Of a stretch of 64,000 nt of DNA, positions 21,859 to 31,882 are shown one piece after another (position 1 is the stretch's first letter; each line of letters starts with the position of its first letter). Both the position numbers and the translations under genes were made by a program. The stretch comes from Phycisphaerales bacterium. GTDB taxonomy: Bacteria; Planctomycetota; Phycisphaerae; Phycisphaerales; UBA1924. The notes below the pieces were generated by a model. That model saw only the letters and a program-made list of their open reading frames with translations. It had not been told where the DNA came from and did not search any database. The stretch covers positions 2,599,767 to 2,663,766 of the forward strand of contig OZ252285.1 in NCBI GenBank assembly GCA_965250055.1, in the 5' to 3' direction.

Positions 21859-24525
21859 TCACGGCTGTGAGTGTAGCGTGTTTTGTGCTTGGATGAGGCG
21901 CGATCGGAAGGGTTCTGGGCCGAGTTTTGGATTCATGAGTTTGAGACGCGTGAGGTGTGCTCGCGCGTTGTCTTGGTCGCTCTCGTTTCCTGATGTGATG
22001 GTGGTTTCGATGATGAGAGTCCACGCGTGCCAGAAGTGTTTGGAGTCGTTGTTGTTGAGAGCGCTTGCGAGTTGTGTGAGTCGCTGGAGCGCCACGTCAG
22101 GTTGACCAGCACCAATGAGGGCGCGTGCGTAGAGCAGCTCGAGCTCGGGATCGGACGCATCGACCGAGTTGTGCACAAGACGAGCGAGACGCGTCATCGC
22201 CGAGGAGGGGTTAGTGTCAATCTCCAGCGCCGCGGCGGTGCGGTGCCAGTGAGTCGAGAGGGGCGAGCGGAGCGCATCGAGAACGCTCGCGGTGTCGATC
22301 GCGTGCTGGAGGGGGTTCGCTTGACGCTTGGTCAGTGCGTTGTTGTGGAGGATCTGAGCGCCGAGGTCCGATTCACGCGTCGCAGGGGTGAGCGAGCGGA
22401 TGAGGGACTCTTGTTCCTGTCCAGCCGTGAGTTTGATGAGCTGGAGCTTCCAGAGGTCGATCTCGATACGATCGGGGTAGGTGTTGATCGCTTGGCGCAG
22501 CAGCGGGGTGATGAGCGGGGATTTGGATGCGGACGCCGTGTCGATCGCTCCGGCGAGCGCGTCGGCGGCTCCGGGATGCGACGGGAAACGATCAGCGAGC
22601 TTGGACGCGGCTTCGATCAGGACCTTCCCGGCGTCGCGCGTGTTGAGCGCTCGAGCGCCGAGGCACGCGAGCCACAGGGAATCCTCGGCGAGGTCTTGGT
22701 CATCGGCGCGGGAGATTGTCAGGAGTGTGTTGATCGCTTCTTGTCGAGCATTGGGATCAGAGCTTGTGAGCCGAGCGCGAGCGTCGATGAAGCGGACGAT
22801 CGCTGGGAGGAGGTTGGTCTTGCTCTGTGAGGTTGGATCGGCGCGGAGCTCATCAACGAGGGCCGCGATCGAGCGGTCAACCAGCGGCTCAAGCTCGGGG
22901 ATCAACGCGCGGAGTCTCAGGAGCGGATCAAACGCGATGAGCGGATCGGTATGCAAGAGTGACCACGACCGCGTCTGTGCCGCGAGGAGTGTCCACGCGG
23001 GATCGGTTGTGAATGGCGGGGTATCAAGCAGCTGCGAATCGGGTTCTTGATGCATCGCGATCGCGAGCACGGCACTCGCCGCCGTGAGATCGGTAACTCC
23101 AAGCTGGGCGCGTTCACTGAGCAGCGCTCGAAGCGAATCGATGTTTGCAGCACTCGACGAGTCCTCAGCGAGCAGCGCCAGCAGCACACGGCGGCGCGCG
23201 TCAAGCTCCGGAGAGACGAAAACCGATTCGCTCAGGGTGCTGTGGATATTCTGAATAAGTCTTGGGTCGCTGAACTGATCGCTGCTGAGCAGCGATGCCT
23301 CGGCGATGAGCAGCGCTGCGCGAGGGTCTTGGGTGTCCGCGTCTTCGAGGAGTTGGTTGATGCGCCGGAGCGCTTCGTTTGCTTTGGACTGGTCATCGTC
23401 AATCGGGAACGCGTAGAGGGTTCGGTAGTACACGCCGGATGCTTTGAGCGCAACGATCTGGTCTTCAGCAGCACTGAGACGTGCGTCGGCGCTTGTTGGT
23501 GGTGGGGGGAGTGGTTCTGGATCAGGGTTGGCGAGCTGGTTGTAGGTGATGACCTGGTGGTCGTTGTGTCCGTCGCCGTGGAAGACACCGATGGTGCGCA
23601 TGATCCCGGTGGGGTCCTCATCGAGGAGTTGGATGGTCTTGATGACGACGGGGCGTGTTCCCGCGACAGGATCGAGCGGGTTGAGCTCGTCGAGGCGTTG
23701 GCGGACGTGCTTGAGTCCGCCGGCCCATGGCGCTTCGGTGCGCTGGATCCCGCGCGAGATGAGCAGGATCATGTCGGGGTTGAGCTCGATCGCGGCCGCG
23801 AGTCCGTCGATGGGGTTGGACTGTCCACGCGCGGGCATCGTCGCGAGCCAATCCGCGACGGCTTTCTTGTTCTCGCGCGTGGCGCGTGGGAGCTTGTTAC
23901 GCGACGTCTGCAGCTCTGGGGTTGCAAACGTCGAGTCGTCGAGCTTGCGGAACGCGATGACCTGGAACCGCTGGGTGGGGCTGAGCCGATCGATCGACTG
24001 GAGCAAGCGCTCGCGGATGTAGCTCAGCGAAGTCAGCGTCGCGCCGGAGGTGTCGATGACGTACACAATCGAGCGCGCCGCTCCGGTCGATACTCCAGCA
24101 AAGCTGATGGGAGACGGCGCGGAACTGGGTTCAGCGGAGAGCGCGGAGGATTGCTTGCTCAGCTGCTCGAGCGTCGCGGCGCTCATTGCTTGGGAGGTGA
24201 CTGGGGTCGGCGTTGAGAGTGCTTTGGCGCTGCGATCGAGCACGCTGGGCGCGGATTGCGTGACCTGCTCAGGTTCGGGAGTCTGGTTCTGAGCGGTGCT
24301 GTTCTGTGCGGGATCGTCTTGTGATTGGTCTGAGGGAGGTGATGCTGCGATCGGAGCGGAGTACTCGAGCTCAGCGAGCGGGAGCTTGGTCTTTTTCTCG
24401 TTTGTTTGCGTAAGCGTGGCGGCGCGCGAGCCGACGATGACGAGCAGAGCGATGAGGGAGGTGTGGACAGCGATCGACACGCCCGGAGGGAGGGCCCATC
24501 TCAGGATTGAAGCGTTTCGAGGCAC
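21859..24525 (-). CDS. Large membrane-anchored VWA-domain protein with helical-repeat (TPR-like) C-terminal half
   Basis: N-terminal TM (VSIAVHTSLIALLVIVG) and a Pro/Ser/Gln-rich linker. VWA-like block IVYVIDTSGATL...RFQVIAFR with an imperfect MIDAS (D-T-S-G-A). The rest is long and alpha-helical. Confidence 0.7.
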   Translation of the reverse strand: MPRNASILRWALPPGVSIAVHTSLIALLVIVGSRAATLTQTNEKKTKLPLAELEYSAPIAASPPSDQSQDDPAQNSTAQNQTPEPEQVTQSAPSVLDRSAKALSTPTPVTSQAMSAATLEQLSKQSSALSAEPSSAPSPISFAGVSTGAARSIVYVIDTSGATLTSLSYIRERLLQSIDRLSPTQRFQVIAFRKLDDSTFATPELQTSRNKLPRATRENKKAVADWLATMPARGQSNPIDGLAAAIELNPDMILLISRGIQRTEAPWAGGLKHVRQRLDELNPLDPVAGTRPVVIKTIQLLDEDPTGIMRTIGVFHGDGHNDHQVITYNQLANPDPEPLPPPPTSADARLSAAEDQIVALKASGVYYRTLYAFPIDDDQSKANEALRRINQLLEDADTQDPRAALLIAEASLLSSDQFSDPRLIQNIHSTLSESVFVSPELDARRRVLLALLAEDSSSAANIDSLRALLSERAQLGVTDLTAASAVLAIAMHQEPDSQLLDTPPFTTDPAWTLLAAQTRSWSLLHTDPLIAFDPLLRLRALIPELEPLVDRSIAALVDELRADPTSQSKTNLLPAIVRFIDARARLTSSDPNARQEAINTLLTISRADDQDLAEDSLWLACLGARALNTRDAGKVLIEAASKLADRFPSHPGAADALAGAIDTASASKSPLITPLLRQAINTYPDRIEIDLWKLQLIKLTAGQEQESLIRSLTPATRESDLGAQILHNNALTKRQANPLQHAIDTASVLDALRSPLSTHWHRTAAALEIDTNPSSAMTRLARLVHNSVDASDPELELLYARALIGAGQPDVALQRLTQLASALNNNDSKHFWHAWTLIIETTITSGNESDQDNARAHLTRLKLMNPKLGPEPFRSRLIQAQNTLHSQP

Positions 24526-25934: not shown

Positions 25935-26102
25935 TTACGGACAGCTTTGTCCGTAGCTCGCGAGGAACGCGGAGATGTCGAGGAAGTTGAAGTTCCCGTC
26001 GTTGTTGACGTCCGCGATGGGGTCCATGTCGCCGTAGAGACCAAGGAAGAGGGAGACGTCGAGGAAGTTGAGACCTCCGGAGAAGTCGAAGTCGGTGTCG
26101 CA
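25935..26102 (-). other. Dockerin-like double EF-hand module ending Cys-Pro-COOH (copy 3)
   Basis: 55 aa from Cys to the terminal CP. Confidence 0.85.
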
Positions 26103-29084
26103 GACCGCGCCGATTCGGATCTCGTCTTCGAAGTATCCGACCTTGTAGCTCAGGCGTGGGTCGCCGGTCGCTGGAGCGATGAAGGTGTCGAACGTTCCGG
26201 TGACTCCTGCATCAGCAGTGACGATGGTCACGACCCACGAGGTCTCGGGATCGAACCCCTCGATGAGCGAGAGGTCGAGCGTGCCGTCGGCGTGAAAGGT
26301 CGAGGAGGAGTCGATGAGGTCACTCGTTCCAAAGTCCGAGACTTCGACCTCGTAGACGCTGGAGTCTGAGAGGGTGATGGGTTGGCTCGCTTCGAGTTCT
26401 CCGACGGAGAGTCCCGGCGCGATGGTGCCGTCCATGTTGAGCGGCGCGTTGATCTGACCACGTCCAGAGAGTGTTTGGTCCGCTCCGATGGTGAGTCCGG
26501 CGCCAGTGATCTGTGATCTGTTTGTGGTCCCGGTAAGTCGGATCTCACCCATGCCGTCGATAGTTGCTGGGGCGGCTGAGGTGACTGCGGTTGCGAATCC
26601 ACTGTTCGTTGGGTTGATGTTGATCGTGTTGTGATTGGTGACGGTGCCCACGATAGCGAGGTTTACACCCGGGTTAATAGTGACTGGTGAAAGATTGGTC
26701 ATATCCTGGAACGTCGAGATTCCGGAGTTGAGTAATGTGGACCCACCGGCGAGCGCGTCCATCGTGCCGCCGTTGATCGTGGCGCTGGTGAGTGTGACCA
26801 AGCCGTCGTTGTTGAGGATCTGACCTCCTCCGGTTTGATCGATCTCGATGCTTGAGACCTGCAGTCCTTCGGCTGGGTTCACCTGGATCAGTGTGTTATT
26901 GATCTTGTTGTTTGATTGGAGCGTGAGTGTTCCGGTGGTCGATTCGATGAGTCCGTTGTTGATCAGCGAGGCGTTGATCTGACCGAATCCCTGAACGGTG
27001 TGCGATGCGCCGATTGTGACGGTTTCGCCCGCTGCGGTGTTGAGCTGTGAGCGATTTGTCGTCCCCATGAGCCGTGTTGTTCCGGTTCCTCCGAGTGTGG
27101 TTGAATCGTTGAACTGGAGAATTGTGATGAAGCCGGCGTTGGACGGGTTGATGGAGATGATGTCGTTACTCATCAAGCCGTTGGTGATCCCGATCGTGGT
27201 TCCGGGGTTGAGGTTCAGTGGCGCGTTGAGTGTGAGTTGATCAAAGTTGGTTGCGCCTGATGATTGCGTGACCACACCGCTCGCGGCATTGATTGTTCCG
27301 TTGTTTATGTTCACTGATGAAAGCGTCAGTGTGCCGTCGCCAACATTGATCTGCGCTGCAGGGTCTTGATCGAGCGTGATTGTTGAGATGGTGATGTTTG
27401 CTCCGGGTTGTATGGAGATTGTGCTGTTGTTCACCTTGTCGTTGCTCAGCAAGCTCAGTGTCTGACCGCTGGTGTCAGCGTCGATCGTTCCGTTGTTGAT
27501 CAGCGATGCATGGATCTGTCCGAATCCTCGGATGACATGACCAGACGCGAGTCCAAGGGTTTCTCCGGCTCCGGTTGTGATCTGTGATCTGTTTCCGGTT
27601 CCACGCAACAATGTTTGTCCTGATCCTGACAGGACTGTGGATGCTGGGAAACTGAGGGTGGTCACGAATCCCGCGTTGGTAGGGTTGATGGTGAGATCGT
27701 CGTTGTTGATAAGCGTGTTGGTTGCTACGAGCGCCACGCCGGGATTGATGTTGAGCGGCGAGTTGAGCACGACGCTGTCAAAGTTGTTTGTCCCTGCGGT
27801 GAGGTTTGTGGCGCCAGTTGTCGCATTGATCACCCCATCGTTGATTGTGGAAGAGCTGATGTTGAGGGTGCCGTTGTCGATATTGAACTGCCCGCCCCCG
27901 GTTTGATCAACAGTGATGCTCGAGATATTCATGATCGCGTTGTTGGTGATCTCGAAGATGTTGTTGTTGACTTTGTTGTTCGTGCTCAACAGCAAGATCT
28001 GTCCCGCTACGTCGGCACTCACCACGCCGTTGTTGATCAGTGGGGCTTGGATGGTGCCTATCCCGCGGATCGTGTGTGTAGATGCTTGTGTGAGTGTGTG
28101 AGAGGGATCAGAGGTCCGGAGATTTGATCTGGAACCAACTCCGTCGAGCGCGAGCGTCCCCGTGCCGTTGAGTGTTGATATGTTCTGGAACTCCGCGACG
28201 GTCACAAAGCCTGCATTGGTGGGGTTGATGCTCAGGTTCGCGTCGTTTGTCATCGTGTTGATGATCTGGAGCGTCACGCCGGGATTGACGATGCCGTTGC
28301 CCATTGCGTGGACATTGTTGAACGAGTTGGTGCCCCCTGTAAATGCCCAGTTTGATCCGGGCATGGACTGGATCGTCCCGTCCGCGATGCTGATCGTTGA
28401 CATGTTCAGTTGACCATCGTCAACGCTGATTTCCCCGCTCACGCCTTGTCCGATTGCGACGTTGTTCATGAACATAGTCGCGTTGTTCACGACTTCGATG
28501 CGATTGTTGTTTGTCCAGGTGCCGCTCAGGATATCGAGTGTGAGTCCGTTGAGATTAGCGCTGACAGTTCCGTCGTTGAGGAAGTCCCCGACGATGCGTC
28601 CGAAGCCGTTCACGGTGTGATCGGTTCCGTGTGATACGGTGGCTCCTGCTCCTGAGACCAATGAAGCACGAGTACCGAATCCATTGAGCGTGAGCGCCCC
28701 GGTTCCTGTGAGTGTCGCGGAGTTATTGAAAGTGACGCTGGTGGTGAACCCACCGCTGGAGTTGTTCACAAGGACAGTGCCGTTGTTGACCATGCCGCCT
28801 TGGAGTCCGATTGCTCTCCCTGCGTCCATGCTGAGTGTGCATCCAGTGTCTTGGATATCTACTGAACCAAGTCCCGGCACGGAGATGTTGAGGGTTGCGG
28901 TGTAGGTCCCTCCGATGTTGAACTCCGCGGTCTCGGTGCCCATGCTCGGGACGCTCATCGGAGACCAGTTGGTTGGAACGTTCCATAAACCACCAGCGGG
29001 ATTGACCCAGTCGATGTTCTGTCCGAGTGCGGTGCCTGCGAGTAAAAAGACGGCGAGTGTTGATTTGGTCATTGGGGTGTTCAT
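25935..29084 (-). CDS. Giant secreted Asn/Thr/Gly-rich beta-helix-type repeat protein (1049 aa) with C-terminal dockerin-like module
   Basis: SD GGAGAG and a signal peptide ending ALGQ. N-terminal W..P.GG.W....NW.P motif. Five ~180-aa units anchored on NPTNAGF (aa 112, 292, 472, 652, 830). A GTIAPGLSVGEL...TFHADGTLDL...GF block precedes the tail. The tail is CDTDFDFSGGLNFLDVSLFLGLYGDMDPIADVNNDGNFNFLDISAFLASYGQSCP*. Confidence 0.9.
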   Translation of the reverse strand: MNTPMTKSTLAVFLLAGTALGQNIDWVNPAGGLWNVPTNWSPMSVPSMGTETAEFNIGGTYTATLNISVPGLGSVDIQDTGCTLSMDAGRAIGLQGGMVNNGTVLVNNSSGGFTTSVTFNNSATLTGTGALTLNGFGTRASLVSGAGATVSHGTDHTVNGFGRIVGDFLNDGTVSANLNGLTLDILSGTWTNNNRIEVVNNATMFMNNVAIGQGVSGEISVDDGQLNMSTISIADGTIQSMPGSNWAFTGGTNSFNNVHAMGNGIVNPGVTLQIINTMTNDANLSINPTNAGFVTVAEFQNISTLNGTGTLALDGVGSRSNLRTSDPSHTLTQASTHTIRGIGTIQAPLINNGVVSADVAGQILLLSTNNKVNNNIFEITNNAIMNISSITVDQTGGGQFNIDNGTLNISSSTINDGVINATTGATNLTAGTNNFDSVVLNSPLNINPGVALVATNTLINNDDLTINPTNAGFVTTLSFPASTVLSGSGQTLLRGTGNRSQITTGAGETLGLASGHVIRGFGQIHASLINNGTIDADTSGQTLSLLSNDKVNNSTISIQPGANITISTITLDQDPAAQINVGDGTLTLSSVNINNGTINAASGVVTQSSGATNFDQLTLNAPLNLNPGTTIGITNGLMSNDIISINPSNAGFITILQFNDSTTLGGTGTTRLMGTTNRSQLNTAAGETVTIGASHTVQGFGQINASLINNGLIESTTGTLTLQSNNKINNTLIQVNPAEGLQVSSIEIDQTGGGQILNNDGLVTLTSATINGGTMDALAGGSTLLNSGISTFQDMTNLSPVTINPGVNLAIVGTVTNHNTININPTNSGFATAVTSAAPATIDGMGEIRLTGTTNRSQITGAGLTIGADQTLSGRGQINAPLNMDGTIAPGLSVGELEASQPITLSDSSVYEVEVSDFGTSDLIDSSSTFHADGTLDLSLIEGFDPETSWVVTIVTADAGVTGTFDTFIAPATGDPRLSYKVGYFEDEIRIGAVCDTDFDFSGGLNFLDVSLFLGLYGDMDPIADVNNDGNFNFLDISAFLASYGQSCP
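26415..28787 (-). repeat. In-frame array of ~540-nt (about 180-aa) repeat units, about 4.5 copies
   Basis: Recurring I-N-P-T-N-A/S-G-F ... L-x-G-T-G ... R-S-Q/N-L/I ... H-T-I/V-x-G-F/I-G-x-I ... L-I-N-N-G anchors at a constant spacing of 178-180 aa. Confidence 0.8.
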
Positions 29085-29189
29085 GATGATCTCTCCGTGA
29101 GCGTTGAACGCTTTTCATCAGAGGGTGTGCGAAGGGTCAATGTCCGAGTTTGACCAGACCCATTGTATAGGGAATTCTGCTCAGTCCAA

Positions 29190-29214
29190 GAAAAAACCCG
29201 CGATGTCGCGGGTT
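29190..29214 (-). terminator. Rho-independent terminator of the 876-aa gene
   Basis: Minus strand reads ACCCGCGA-CA-TCGCGGGT followed by TTTTTCTTG. Confidence 0.75.
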
Positions 29215-29251
29215 TGGGGGGGGTGGGGGGTTGGGTAAGATCAAATCGCGT

Positions 29252-29419
29252 TTACGGGCAGCTCTGGCCGTAGCTTGCGAGGAACGCGGAGATGTCGAGG
29301 AAGTTGAAGTTCCCGTCGTTGTTGATATCCGCGATCGGATTCATCTCGCCGTAGAGAGCTAGGAAGAGGGAGACATCGAGGAAGTTGAGTCCTCCTGAGA
29401 AGTCGAAGTCTGTATCGCA
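29252..29419 (-). other. Dockerin-like double EF-hand module ending Cys-Pro-COOH (copy 4)
   Basis: CDTDFDFSGGLNFLDVSLFLALYGEMNPIADINNDGNFNFLDISAFLASYGQSCP*. Confidence 0.85.
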
Positions 29420-31882
29420 GACCGCGCCGACGCGGATCTCGTCCTCGAAGTATCCGATCTTGTAACTCAGTCTTGGATCCGCAGCAGCGGGTGCGATGAG
29501 TGTGTCGAATGTTCCTGTGACTCCGCCGTCAGCCGTGACGATGGTGACGACCCATGATTCTGTTGGAGTGAATCCATCGATGAGCGTGAGGTCGAGCGTG
29601 CCGTCGGCGTGGAAGGTCGATCCAGAGTCGATGACATCATGGCTCGACAGTCCTCCAACCTCGATCTCAAGAACGCTTGAATCTCCCAGCGTGATCGGGC
29701 TGGTTGCATTGAGGATCCCTGCGGAGAGTCCCGGCGCGATGGTGCCGTGATTGACCATCGGGGTCGCGATGCGTCCGATCCCAGTGATGGTGTGGTCCGC
29801 GCTGTTGGTGAAGACCTCCGTGCCTGTGACGCTGGTGATCTGGGCGCGTGTGGTCAATCCGCTGAGATTGAGCTCGCCTGGTCCTTCGATGGTTAGGTCG
29901 TTCTGGATCTCCAGCGATGTGACAGCGGCTCCGTTGGTTGGGTTCAGATCAAGCACCGAGTTGTTGGTGTGTGTGCCGCTGAGTTCGAGTGTCCGTCCCG
30001 GCTCGACAACAACCGATGCATTGTTGATAACGCTGGTCAATCGGCTTGTGCCTCCCTGGACATTGAATACGCCCGTGCCGCTGGATTCGATCGAACCTCC
30101 GGTGATGATGGTATTCTGGAGTTCAACCTCGCCGTCATCTGCGGTGATCTTTGCGCCTAGAGCTTGGGTTACACTCGAATCGGTACTGAGTTCGAGGGTC
30201 GCACCGTTGGTGGACTGGATTGTATTGTTGTTCTGAATTTCGTAGTCATCGACGAGGAGCTCTTGTCCCGAGAAATCAGCGATGATCTGTCCCTCGTTGA
30301 TCATGGGCGCGTTGATGCGTCCGAAGCCGTGGATGGTGTGATTGGCGCCGTTGGTAATCACGAAGGTAGTCGGGAGCACCGAGAGGATTTGAGCTCTGGT
30401 TGAAAAACCATTGAGTGTTACTGATCCAGTACCATTCAGTGATCCTGAATCCATGAAGCGCAGGTTCGTTTGGGCAGCACCGTTGGTTGGGTTGATGAGG
30501 ATGTTGCCGTTGTTGGTGATGGAGTTGCGGATCTGCAGCGCGTCGCCGACTGAGACATTGAACTGGGCTTCATTGGTGACCCCGCGGAGCTCAGTGACGA
30601 AGACAACCTCGTGGATACCTGAGCCGCTGGTGAGGGTGCCGCCTTCGATCTCTGGTCCGTTGTAGACGATGTTGCTGGTGTTGGCCGCGAGCACGCCCCC
30701 TCCGGTCTGGTCGAGGGTGAAGTTGTTGATTTCAAGTGTGCCGCCGTCTGCGGACATGATGCCGTTGTTTGTTTTGTTTTCACCGGAGTTGAGCAGCGTG
30801 TTTCCGGGGTTGTTGGCGGTGATCGTGCCGTTGTTGACCAGGGAACCAAAGATGCGTCCGAACCCCTCGAGGGTGTGGTTGGTGTCGTTGGTGAGGGTGC
30901 CCCCTCCGGCGGTGGTGATCTGGGCGCGTGTGGTGAAGCCGTTGAGTGTGACCTTGCCCGGCCCGGTCAGCAGGACGTTGTTGTCGGCGTCGAGAGTCGT
31001 AACCGCGGCTCCGTTTGCCGGATTGACCAAGATCGTACCGTTGTTGGTGATGGTGTCCGAGAGGTTAAGGGTCCGCGACACCGCGACCTGGACATCGCCG
31101 TTGATGGTGAGGTCGTCAAGTGTCGGAGAGCCGTCGGAGACGACCACGCCGCCGTTGATTCCTTCGATGCTGCCGCCGGAGATTGATGTTTGATGCATCG
31201 ACACAGTGCCGCCGTCGGCGCGGACGACGCCGGCTGGGCTTTGGGTGATGATGAGATCGACGAAGTTGAGATCGAGGATCCCGTTGTTGGTGGCGCCGAT
31301 GACGCTGTTGTTGGTGATGTTCCCGAATCGGAAGTCGAGGGTGTTGAACGGATTGTCCGCTTGGATGGTACCGTTGTTGATGAAGTCACCGAAGATCTGT
31401 CCGTAGCCGTGGATCGTGTGACCGGCGCCGTGCGTGACTGTCGATCCTGATTCAGCGATCAAGCGTGATCGAGTCGAGAGTCCGTTGAGGAGGATGTCTC
31501 CCGTGCCGCTGATGGTTGCGGAGTCTCTCCAGAAGAGCGAGGTTTGTGCGGCTCCTGAAGTGGTGTTGACAACGTAGGTCCCGCTGTTGTCGAAGTTGCC
31601 GAAGAGTTCGTGCTGACGGCTGAGATTCAACGCGATCGTTGCGCTGGGGTTGTTGTTGGTGATGTCATCGGTGTCGAAGTTGCCGCTGATTGTGATGGTG
31701 TATGTCCCGTTGTTGGGGATGACCGCGTCGCTGGTCATCGTGGTCGGTGCGCTCACGGGCGTCCAGTTGGTGGGTACAGACCAGAACCCATCGGTCGTCA
31801 GGTTCCAGGTTGATGTTTGTGCGAGTCCGGCGCTGGTGATCAGCGTGAGCGCGGATACGGCGGCGAGTGTTTTGGTGTGCAT
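29252..31882 (-). CDS. Paralogous giant secreted beta-helix-type repeat protein (876 aa) with C-terminal dockerin-like module
   Basis: SD GGGAGAGAG and a signal peptide ending GLAQ. Same N-terminal W....G.W..PTNW.P motif. Four ~180-aa units anchored on N-P-x-N-G-A-A (aa 110, 291, 468, 651). The last ~165 aa are nearly the same as in the 1049-aa paralog. Confidence 0.9.
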   Translation of the reverse strand: MHTKTLAAVSALTLITSAGLAQTSTWNLTTDGFWSVPTNWTPVSAPTTMTSDAVIPNNGTYTITISGNFDTDDITNNNPSATIALNLSRQHELFGNFDNSGTYVVNTTSGAAQTSLFWRDSATISGTGDILLNGLSTRSRLIAESGSTVTHGAGHTIHGYGQIFGDFINNGTIQADNPFNTLDFRFGNITNNSVIGATNNGILDLNFVDLIITQSPAGVVRADGGTVSMHQTSISGGSIEGINGGVVVSDGSPTLDDLTINGDVQVAVSRTLNLSDTITNNGTILVNPANGAAVTTLDADNNVLLTGPGKVTLNGFTTRAQITTAGGGTLTNDTNHTLEGFGRIFGSLVNNGTITANNPGNTLLNSGENKTNNGIMSADGGTLEINNFTLDQTGGGVLAANTSNIVYNGPEIEGGTLTSGSGIHEVVFVTELRGVTNEAQFNVSVGDALQIRNSITNNGNILINPTNGAAQTNLRFMDSGSLNGTGSVTLNGFSTRAQILSVLPTTFVITNGANHTIHGFGRINAPMINEGQIIADFSGQELLVDDYEIQNNNTIQSTNGATLELSTDSSVTQALGAKITADDGEVELQNTIITGGSIESSGTGVFNVQGGTSRLTSVINNASVVVEPGRTLELSGTHTNNSVLDLNPTNGAAVTSLEIQNDLTIEGPGELNLSGLTTRAQITSVTGTEVFTNSADHTITGIGRIATPMVNHGTIAPGLSAGILNATSPITLGDSSVLEIEVGGLSSHDVIDSGSTFHADGTLDLTLIDGFTPTESWVVTIVTADGGVTGTFDTLIAPAAADPRLSYKIGYFEDEIRVGAVCDTDFDFSGGLNFLDVSLFLALYGEMNPIADINNDGNFNFLDISAFLASYGQSCP
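29738..31585 (-). repeat. In-frame array of ~540-nt (about 180-aa) repeat units, about 3.5 copies
   Basis: Anchors NTTSGAA / NPANGAA / NPTNGAA / NPTNGAA spaced 177-183 aa apart, each followed by L-x-G-x-G ... TRAQI ... H-T-x-x-G-x-G-R-I. Confidence 0.8.

Follow-up and report, generated by a model that had tools for sequence, protein, structure and literature searches.

Two adjoining genes for predicted beta-helix rods with a 180-residue super-repeat and a dockerin-like tail in a marine Phycisphaerales planctomycete

The passengers of the type Va autotransporters, such as Ag43 (PDB 4kh3 and 7koh), TibA (4q1q), pertactin (1dab) and Serratia Ssp (8e7f), are rods that are built as a right-handed three-stranded beta-helix with Asn/Gly-rich turns, and they are characterised by this helix together with a conserved terminal ...PG.S.GTL... 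segment. Among the surface proteins of the PVC superphylum that carry PEP-CTERM, T9SS-CTD or PATR elements, a W..W..NW N-terminal cap and a unit of 180 residues are found, and in some of them, e.g., P0080, an ...APG.S.G.L... block lies ahead of the anchor. The proteins that are described by the model NF041540 end in a module of about 55 residues, in which two loop-helix repeats are placed between two cysteines, the last of them at position -2. A duplicated Ca2+-loop/helix module is also found at the C-terminus of secreted proteins with cellulosomal type I dockerins, and a "planctosome" that is based on cohesin-dockerin pairs was proposed for freshwater Phycisphaerae (Andrei et al. 2019, PMC6461901).

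We analysed a window of 64,000 nucleotides from an uncultured marine Phycisphaerales planctomycete (contig OZ252285.1, positions 2,599,767 to 2,663,766), in which two adjoining genes on the minus strand encode protein A (1049 aa; 25935-29084) and protein B (876 aa; 29252-31882). Both reading frames were confirmed as they had been given in a first-pass annotation of the sequence. A and B share the helix (predicted) and the conserved terminal segment with the type Va passengers, and the last ~130 residues of their rods are homologous in sequence to Ssp residues 472-609. In contrast to the autotransporters, they have no beta-barrel translocator and match no autochaperone or barrel domain of Pfam, their super-repeat would comprise eight coils and ~180 residues instead of a rung repeat of ~19 residues, they end in a dockerin-like module, and their TM-scores to the passengers are at most 0.34. 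They have the cap, the unit and the block of the PVC surface proteins but neither a PEP-CTERM signal nor a match to the PATR repeat. Their tails resemble the module of the NF041540 proteins but score below its cut-off and end in S-C-P, not in G-C-P. The same tail as in A and B is borne by a neighbouring M12B reprolysin-like protease, which parallels the planctosome model; however, the tails of A and B do not match Pfam Dockerin_1 and have an additional Cys bracket, the genome lacks a detectable cohesin, and the cargo of the tail in A and B is a predicted rod rather than an enzyme. Both the fold and the tail are of known kinds, and no new principle is involved.

Repeat architecture and predicted fold

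Protein A begins with a signal peptide (aa 1-21; 29022..29084), a hydrophobic N-terminus ending in ALG ahead of Q, which is followed by an N-terminal cap (aa 22-106; 28767..29021) whose final part is similar to the closing ~25 positions of a unit. Four full units, all of them aligned to positions 1-180 of the unit profile, were delimited at aa 107-286 (28227..28766; 230 bits), 287-466 (27687..28226), 467-645 (27150..27686) and 646-823 (26616..27149), and a partial fifth unit at aa 824-900 (26385..26615) covers only profile positions 1-80. In protein B, the signal peptide (aa 1-21; 31820..31882; a hydrophobic N-terminus ending in GLA ahead of Q) and the cap (aa 22-105; 31568..31819) precede three full units at aa 106-286 (31025..31567), 287-463 (30494..31024) and 464-646 (29945..30493) and a partial fourth one at aa 647-727 (29702..29944), all of which were recognised by the unit profile. 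The first-pass annotation had described a W..P..G.W..PTNW.P motif after both signal peptides; the motif is present in A and B, with the exception of its first Pro in B. It had also reported that Cys is absent before the terminal module, which is true for B, while A has a single Cys outside the tail, C82, located in the cap.

The anchor motif N-P-T/S-N-A/S-G-F of A starts at aa 287, 467, 646 and 824, with a degenerate N-N-S-S-G-G-F at 107, and the corresponding N-P-x-N-G-A-A of B starts at aa 287, 464 and 647, with a degenerate N-T-T-S-G-A-A at 106. The period of ~180 residues that had been proposed was thus borne out (178-180 aa in A and 177-183 aa in B), although the anchor positions given with it were 4-6 residues too high. 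Self-BLASTP of the proteins returned only the identity alignment, and autocorrelation (BLOSUM62 scoring, z against shuffled sequences) and the unit profile were used instead. In A, autocorrelation peaked at lag 179 (z 10.5), with a second peak at 360 (z 6.7); in B, the peak at lag 360 (z 10.0) exceeded that at 181 (z 5.1). Self-similarity at lag 179-181 thus has a best z of about 10. The proposed numbers of five and four units hold only when the partial unit is counted, because the final unit in both proteins spans only the first ~80 of the 180 positions; the true count is four full units and one partial unit in A, and three and one in B.

Pairwise identity among the units, which align across all 180 positions, is 24-48% at the protein level. 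At the DNA level, it reaches at most 67-73%, and only in short stretches, which indicates that the array is old. The sub-motifs L-x-G-T/P-G, R-S/A-Q, H-T-I/V-x-G-x-G-x-I and L-I/V-N-N-G, which had been listed earlier, were found in all of the full units, and the invariant residues are mostly Gly and Asn, which correspond to turns and Asn ladders. The reported richness in Asn, Thr, Gly, Ile and Ser was also confirmed; in A, the shares are 13.2% Thr, 12.3% Gly, 11.2% Asn, 9.1% Ser, 8.9% Leu and 8.1% Ile. In each unit, moreover, an Arg and a Gln are invariant and a His and a Lys are nearly so; the Arg, Gln and His may point to a site of binding or catalysis that recurs from unit to unit and that a purely passive stalk could do without.

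The AlphaFold2 models were confident both for full-length A (pLDDT 92, pTM 0.66), in which the signal peptide was the sole segment with a pLDDT below 50, and for a two-unit piece (pLDDT 96.3, pTM 0.91). The models are all-beta with short strands, and globular domains were not predicted, which agrees with the beta-helix that had been suspected from the sequence. The model of full-length A contains 116 short strands, whose start positions recur almost identically in every unit, with about 24 strands per unit, that is, eight coils of ~22.5 aa. In Foldseek searches against the PDB, all 50 of the matches listed for the two-unit piece and nearly all of those listed for full-length A were right-handed parallel beta-helices. 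The best of them were Ag43 (7koh, 4kh3), Ssp (8e7f), pertactin, EspC, TibA and UpaB, with self-associating autotransporter adhesins at the top of both lists, while PL6 alginate lyases, GH28 polygalacturonases and phage tailspikes were weaker (E 1.3e-3 and above), and ice-binding beta-helices were among the weak matches (E 0.15-0.3). The similarity to solved beta-helices was low (TMq 0.10-0.34, rmsd 11-27 Å), so that the assignment of A and B to the right-handed parallel beta-helix (pectate-lyase-like) fold class, which is supported by the models, is based on the consistency of the top matches and on the strand pattern and not on close superposition.

The family models that the first-pass annotation had put forward did not recognise these proteins. 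PF12951/TIGR02601 (PATR) gave no match with the whole proteins at E up to 1 or with fragments at E up to 10, the pectate-lyase models of Pfam and NCBIfam matched neither the whole proteins nor the fragments, none of the beta-helix families of Pfam was recognised, and no catalytic family of either database was matched even at E up to 10. A search of the PDB sequences with the unit profile returned only Csy2 matches at E about 0.01, which is at chance level, and these were rejected as an artefact.

The helix end and the dockerin-like tail

The last part of the helix in A, the terminal segment of the autotransporter-passenger type (aa 865-994; 26103..26492), overlaps the partial unit and holds the block G-T-I-A-P-G-L-S-V-G. 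The segment of B (aa 692-821; 29420..29809), with G-T-I-A-P-G-L-S-A-G, aligns to it without gaps. Such a G-T-I-A-P-G-L-S-x-G block had been noted before the tail of both proteins and likened to blocks ahead of PEP-CTERM and autotransporter anchors, and both likenesses proved to be real. A profile of orthologues that spanned the block together with the ~110 residues that follow matched the end of the Ssp passenger helix (residues 472-609 of 8e7f) at E 1.1e-10, and the segment of A additionally matched the EprS autotransporter model weakly. As to PEP-CTERM, the relative P0080 has the same block ahead of a bona fide signal of this type (28.9 bits). In A and B themselves, the PEP-CTERM signal (TIGR02595; PEP motif, TM helix and basic cluster) is absent, and neither a C-terminal 12-stranded beta-barrel translocator in Pfam or NCBIfam nor an autochaperone domain in Pfam was matched; the model of A ends in two helices.

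These helices (1007-1018 and 1034-1044) belong to the dockerin-like tail, which comprises aa 995-1049 of A (25938..26102), flanked by C995 and C1048, and aa 822-876 of B (29255..29419), flanked by C822 and C875. The two proteins are especially similar at this end; their last 170 residues are 79% identical, as are 82% of their last ~500 nucleotides. Against NF041540, whose curated cut-off is 29 bits, the tails of A and B scored 20.6 and 20.8 bits in hmmscan and 24.4 and 26.9 bits in a six-frame search of the genome, with the alignment covering model positions 4-67. Their layout fits the model, since they are placed at the extreme C-terminus and consist of two loop-helix repeats bracketed by Cys, with the last Cys at -2 (C1048-P1049 and C875-P876). 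Its sequence places the tail among the GC-type dockerins, as a divergent form. A profile search of the PDB matched the tail to a type I dockerin (2y3n_B) at E 3.7e-4, while Pfam Dockerin_1 (PF00404) reached only E 0.55 and 10.9 bits against a cut-off of 22.9. When the tail alone was compared with the PDB, a VDAC match of 46 residues (E 1.4e-3) was also obtained, and it was rejected as a short-segment or composition artefact.

In the genome, 117 reading frames matched the NF041540 tail model. Five neighbouring genes carry related tails, with 43-62% BLASTP identity to those of A and B, and three of the five scored 40-47 bits, i.e., above the cut-off; the neighbouring genes with such tails include those of the reprolysin-like (M12B) protease and a GH42-like protein. 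Cohesin (Pfam PF00963) was found neither in A or B nor, at E<=0.1, in the whole genome. In the literature, our search found no paper that used the term "GC-type dockerin" and nothing that joined PEP-CTERM, beta-helix and Planctomycetes. A and B can be regarded as conserved cargo of a GC-dockerin system that is hugely expanded in one Phycisphaerales family. Between B and A, a terminator-like hairpin with a T-run (29194..29215, minus strand; a consensus match only) suggests that the two genes may be separate transcription units.

Possible roles of the rods

A and B are probably exported through the Sec pathway and shaped as right-handed beta-helix rods without enzymatic activity, of the stalk or adhesin-like surface fibre type, and the role that we infer as the most likely one is that of passive adhesin-like surface stalks. 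Each rod would form one continuous three-stranded solenoid with non-identical coils, in which eight different coils of ~22.5 aa make up the ~180-aa super-repeat, of which A has four complete copies and B three. A Trp-rich cap would stand at the N-terminal end, the rod would finish with the segment that shares homology with the passenger ends of type V autotransporters, and the chain would end in the Cys-bracketed two-loop dockerin-like module in place of a beta-barrel translocator. This module would presumably dock the rod, in a Ca2+-dependent manner, to a putative partner in the cell envelope. With a rise of 4.8 Å per coil, a unit is predicted to add about 38 Å, and the predicted rod lengths are about 200 Å for A and about 170 Å for B. 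A surface location, docking, an adhesive or spacer role and a different reach of A and B are what we infer from the features described. Members of the wider family combine the same unit with a C-terminal tail of the GC-dockerin, PEP-CTERM or T9SS-like type, which is what one would expect if the rod were a generic stalk for surface display.

The presence of PL6 alginate lyases, GH28 polygalacturonases and phage tailspikes among the Foldseek matches, the Arg, Gln, His and Lys conserved from unit to unit and the neighbouring dockerin-tailed enzymes would also fit a polysaccharide lyase or glycoside hydrolase of the beta-helix type whose units act in catalysis or substrate binding, with three to five equivalent sites for algal polysaccharides. 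We consider this unlikely, since no CAZyme or other catalytic family was matched at E up to 10, the adhesin passengers scored better than the enzymes in Foldseek, the conserved positions are mostly turn Gly and Asn, and the acidic residues that Ca2+ binding or acid catalysis would need are scarce (5.4% Asp and 1.9% Glu in A). Moreover, we know of no beta-helix enzyme in which the active site is repeated along one helix. Slightly less probable still are rods that are released and not anchored, either as Ag43-like matrix or aggregation fibres that self-associate head-to-tail or as flat Thr/Asn arrays that bind ice or minerals. The self-associating Ag43 and TibA are the best structural matches, Thr, Asn, Gly and Ser together account for 46% of A, and ice-binding beta-helices appeared among the weak Foldseek matches; however, the latter are at chance level, richness in Thr and Asn is generic among beta-helices, and the conserved dockerin-like tail points to attachment to a partner.

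It would be far more surprising if A and B were the missing scaffold of the GC-dockerin system, with units that are equivalent to cohesins for the ~115 other dockerin-bearing proteins and a tail that serves for attachment to the cell in the manner of adaptor scaffoldins. Repeated modules with a C-terminal dockerin do resemble the layout of a scaffoldin, the genes lie within a cluster of dockerin-tailed enzymes in a genome where Pfam cohesin was not found, and the planctosome was proposed for freshwater relatives (PMC6461901). A test of the co-distribution of the unit and the GC-dockerin gave no support to this idea; the two are uncoupled across genomes. Genome G088, which is from the same family, encodes at least 53 GC-dockerins with no match to the unit at E<=1e-20, while in four genomes of other families (G006, G024, G041 and G093) the unit is present and the GC-dockerin absent. 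In addition, the unit is common elsewhere in PEP-CTERM and T9SS-type proteins, and in the models a single helix runs on through the units, which do not form separate domains. A variant of the stalk, which we regard as improbable but as somewhat better placed than any of these alternatives, is that the eight-coil block is a functional module with a repeated Arg/Gln/His surface patch. This would make the rod a ruler that binds ligands multivalently, with a valency of 2-10 that is set by the number of units and with any anchor that the host uses (GC-dockerin, PEP-CTERM or T9SS), and its ligands might be, for example, an algal polysaccharide or partner proteins within a planctosome-like complex on the cell surface.

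The family of the 180-residue unit

A and B belong to a very large protein family. The unit profile matched at least 3,791 protein clusters at 50% identity, and no Pfam or NCBIfam model matches the unit. Family members have 2-10 full copies of the unit at a constant period of about 175-190 aa, and the W..W..NW motif was present in 100 of the 139 family representatives. The first-pass annotation had called a super-repeat of 180 residues unusually long, which is correct in comparison with the 19-32-aa repeats of the known passengers but not in the sense of rarity, as the same period is found in thousands of unannotated proteins. With a domain model for the unit, large surface proteins could be annotated by the thousand, both in the PVC superphylum and in other environmental bacteria. 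The joining of one type of rod, including its autotransporter-type helix end, to three or four different anchoring signals is a clear case from nature of the modular exchange of surface-display systems.

A scan for related loci with single proteins found them only in close Phycisphaerales relatives. The comparison of unit copy number, which had been recommended earlier, showed that this number is of old origin and has remained stable in the orthologues that were compared. The units group by position across the orthologues, which argues for conservation of, and selection on, both the gene pair and its numbers of units. Among the family members, P0085 scored 38.8 bits against NF041540, and the relatives P0036 and P0039 are named "GC-type dockerin domain-anchored protein" by NCBI. 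Other automatic names in the family contradict one another and include "AIM24 family", "CO dehydrogenase subunit G" and "fibronectin-binding autotransporter adhesin".

Repeat units and predicted fold of the rods

The adjacent ORFs for proteins A (25935-29084, minus strand, 1049 aa) and B (29252-31882, minus strand, 876 aa), each of which has a hydrophobic signal peptide, were confirmed to be tandem paralogs built from repeats of about 180 aa, as the first-pass annotation had proposed. In A the anchor motif starts at aa 107, 287, 467, 646 and 824, and in B at aa 106, 287, 464 and 647; the period of 177-183 aa reported earlier stands, and the positions given with it were 4-6 residues too high. 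For A, autocorrelation (BLOSUM62 versus shuffled sequences) peaked at lags of 179 (z 10.5) and 360 (z 6.7), and for B at 360 (z 10.0) and 181 (z 5.1). The aligned units have a pairwise identity of 24-48% and have in common the sub-motifs that had been noticed at first reading. As DNA they are barely alignable, with an identity of at most 67-73% in short stretches only, which indicates that the repeat array is ancient. A profile that was built on the seven full units of A and B covers positions 1-180 in each of them; the last copy in either protein matched at positions 1-80 only, so that the five versus four units counted initially become four full and one partial in A and three full and one partial in B. 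The claimed absence of cysteines before the terminal module is true of B, which has none outside the tail, and fails for A, which has one (C82).

The AlphaFold2 model of full-length A, for which 34 aligned orthologues and relatives served as input, had a mean pLDDT of 92 and a pTM of 0.66, with 116 short strands across residues 24-994 and two helices in the tail; that of a two-unit piece (aa 267-646) reached a pLDDT of 96.3 and a pTM of 0.91. The strand starts are nearly identical from unit to unit at about 24 positions (9, 17, 24, 34, 44, 51, 62, 67, 76, etc.), which corresponds to eight three-stranded coils of about 22.5 aa each. The predicted units are short strands in recurring coils; globular units, the outcome that the annotation had set against its own reading, were not seen. 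In a Foldseek search of the PDB, right-handed parallel beta-helices made up all 50 matches listed for the two-unit piece and nearly all of those listed for full-length A; Ag43 (7koh, 4kh3), Ssp (8e7f), pertactin, EspC, Hbp, TibA and UpaB were at the top, and PL6 lyases, GH28 enzymes and tailspikes ranked lower. The E-values were modest (5.6e-5 and 2.2e-4) and the TM-scores low (≤0.34); the predicted fold class, a right-handed parallel beta-helix, is firm, yet no solved structure is close as a model. The canonical rise of a beta-helix is 4.8 Å per coil, at which a unit would span about 38 Å, A about 200 Å and B about 170 Å. As predicted beta-helix surface rods, A and B differ from the known kind in their eight-coil super-repeat and in an ending that is dockerin-type instead of barrel-type.

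The G-T-I-A-P-G-L-S-x-G segment and about 110 residues beyond it matched residues 472-609 of the Serratia Ssp passenger (8e7f; E 1.1e-10, ortholog profile) and, weakly, the EprS autotransporter model, and the same block lies upstream of a true PEP-CTERM signal in the relative P0080. The link to autotransporter and PEP-CTERM anchors that had been drawn at first reading is thus sound; the models suggested with it, PATR (PF12951/TIGR02601) and the pectate-lyase families, had no match in A or B. The last 500 nt or so of A (25935-26431) and B (29252-29748) are 82% identical (79% as protein), although the repeat bodies barely align as DNA; at the sequence level, this fits gene conversion or a strong constraint on the helix end and tail.

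The dockerin-like tail and the role of the rods

The final 55 residues of A and B, which are bracketed by two cysteines and end in S-C-P, scored 20.6-26.9 bits against NF041540 (GC-type dockerin domain-anchored protein), under its 29-bit cut-off, and also matched a cellulosomal type I dockerin (E 3.7e-4). Related tails were found on five other genes at 18.5-39.6 kb of the window, three of which scored 40-47 bits with NF041540; their bodies are GH42-like, Ig-domain, an unannotated 805-aa protein, unknown and an M12B reprolysin-like protease. GC-dockerin genes are clustered in islands, with seven within 21 kb here (18550-39592), A and B included, and about ten in 18 kb near 2.32 Mb (C1:2312280-2330071), where a 1011-aa distant relative of A and B is also located. 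The single-contig genome of 2.93 Mb, of which the window is positions 2,599,767-2,663,766, contains 117 tail-model matches. Among 101 sampled genomes of the class, the massive expansion is limited to the window's own family. First-look candidates number 135-223 in five of its seven genomes and 75 in a sixth, and other families have 0-7 matches. No Pfam cohesin was detectable across the genome. A "planctosome" of cohesin-dockerin pairs, including M12B proteases, was hypothesised for freshwater Phycisphaerae (PMC6461901); the literature searched contained no mention of GC-type dockerins.

No catalytic signature was found in A or B. Gly and Asn, located at turns, account for most of the conserved residues of each unit; among the others, one Arg and one Gln are invariant and one His is nearly so. 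Self-associating adhesins are the closest structural relatives of the rods. On the most economical reading, A and B would be passive stalks or adhesins that are docked via the tail. The initial interpretation is supported. That they might instead be scaffoldins is disfavoured by distribution, since one genome of the window's own family carries 53 or more GC-dockerins yet lacks a strong match to the unit, and four genomes of other families carry the unit without GC-dockerins.

The wider family and the history of the pair

With the threshold at E≤1e-3, the unit profile retrieved 3,791 representatives (50% clusters), of which 808 remained at E≤1e-30. Full units were counted in 139 proteins from the 150 best matches: each has 2-10, mostly three or four, with a period that is nearly always 175-190 aa, and a W..W..NW cap is present in 100 of the 139. 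According to a tally by regular expression with an HMM check on examples, the C-termini of these 139 vary: a Cys-terminated dockerin-like tail closes at least 67, PEP-CTERM at least 18 and a T9SS/FlgD-like sorting domain about 10. In the PEP-CTERM members P0071, P0083 and P0065, a canonical-looking dockerin-type double Ca2+ loop (GD.NLDGKVDGSDY...NGDFNYDG.VDGSDY) directly precedes the signal, which ties the rod to dockerin-like modules even beyond the GC-type lineage. NCBIfam models matched the repeat body in none of six tested members, and at source the members are named "hypothetical" or bear names that contradict one another; A and B belong to a large family that is covered by no database model. 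The nearest relatives are MAGs with the label Phycisphaerales or Phycisphaeraceae, and Tara Oceans samples are the source of some; one relative is labelled Fimbriimonadia, i.e., outside Planctomycetota.

Orthologues keep the length of both proteins (1044-1054 aa for A, 875-876 aa for B). A-type orthologues share 55-78% identity with A, and that of B in the related locus L001 is 71% identical to B. In the unit tree, A-units and B-units form separate clades and each unit clusters with the same-position unit of orthologues, which indicates that the unit number is older than these species and unchanged among the genomes compared. The locus is less stable: the order is B-A in the window (25935-31882) and L003 (5187-11135), A-B between the same flanking genes in L001 (10001-15892), and A is alone in L004 (8001-11147). 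The full order is 760/805-aa gene, B, A and DoxX in the former two and 764-aa gene, A, B and DoxX in L001.

A terminator-like hairpin lies 3' of each gene, that of B at 29194-29215 (minus strand) between B and A, and judging by these the two look like separate transcription units. The C-rich run cccaaccccccaccccccccaaaccc (29216-29240, minus, transcript strand) is located between the B stop codon and this hairpin, which it immediately precedes. Downstream of the DoxX gene, an 888-aa ORF (21859-24525, minus strand) had no match in a Pfam search; its counterpart (872-888 aa) is kept in position in L001, L003 and L004, where thymidylate kinase comes after it.
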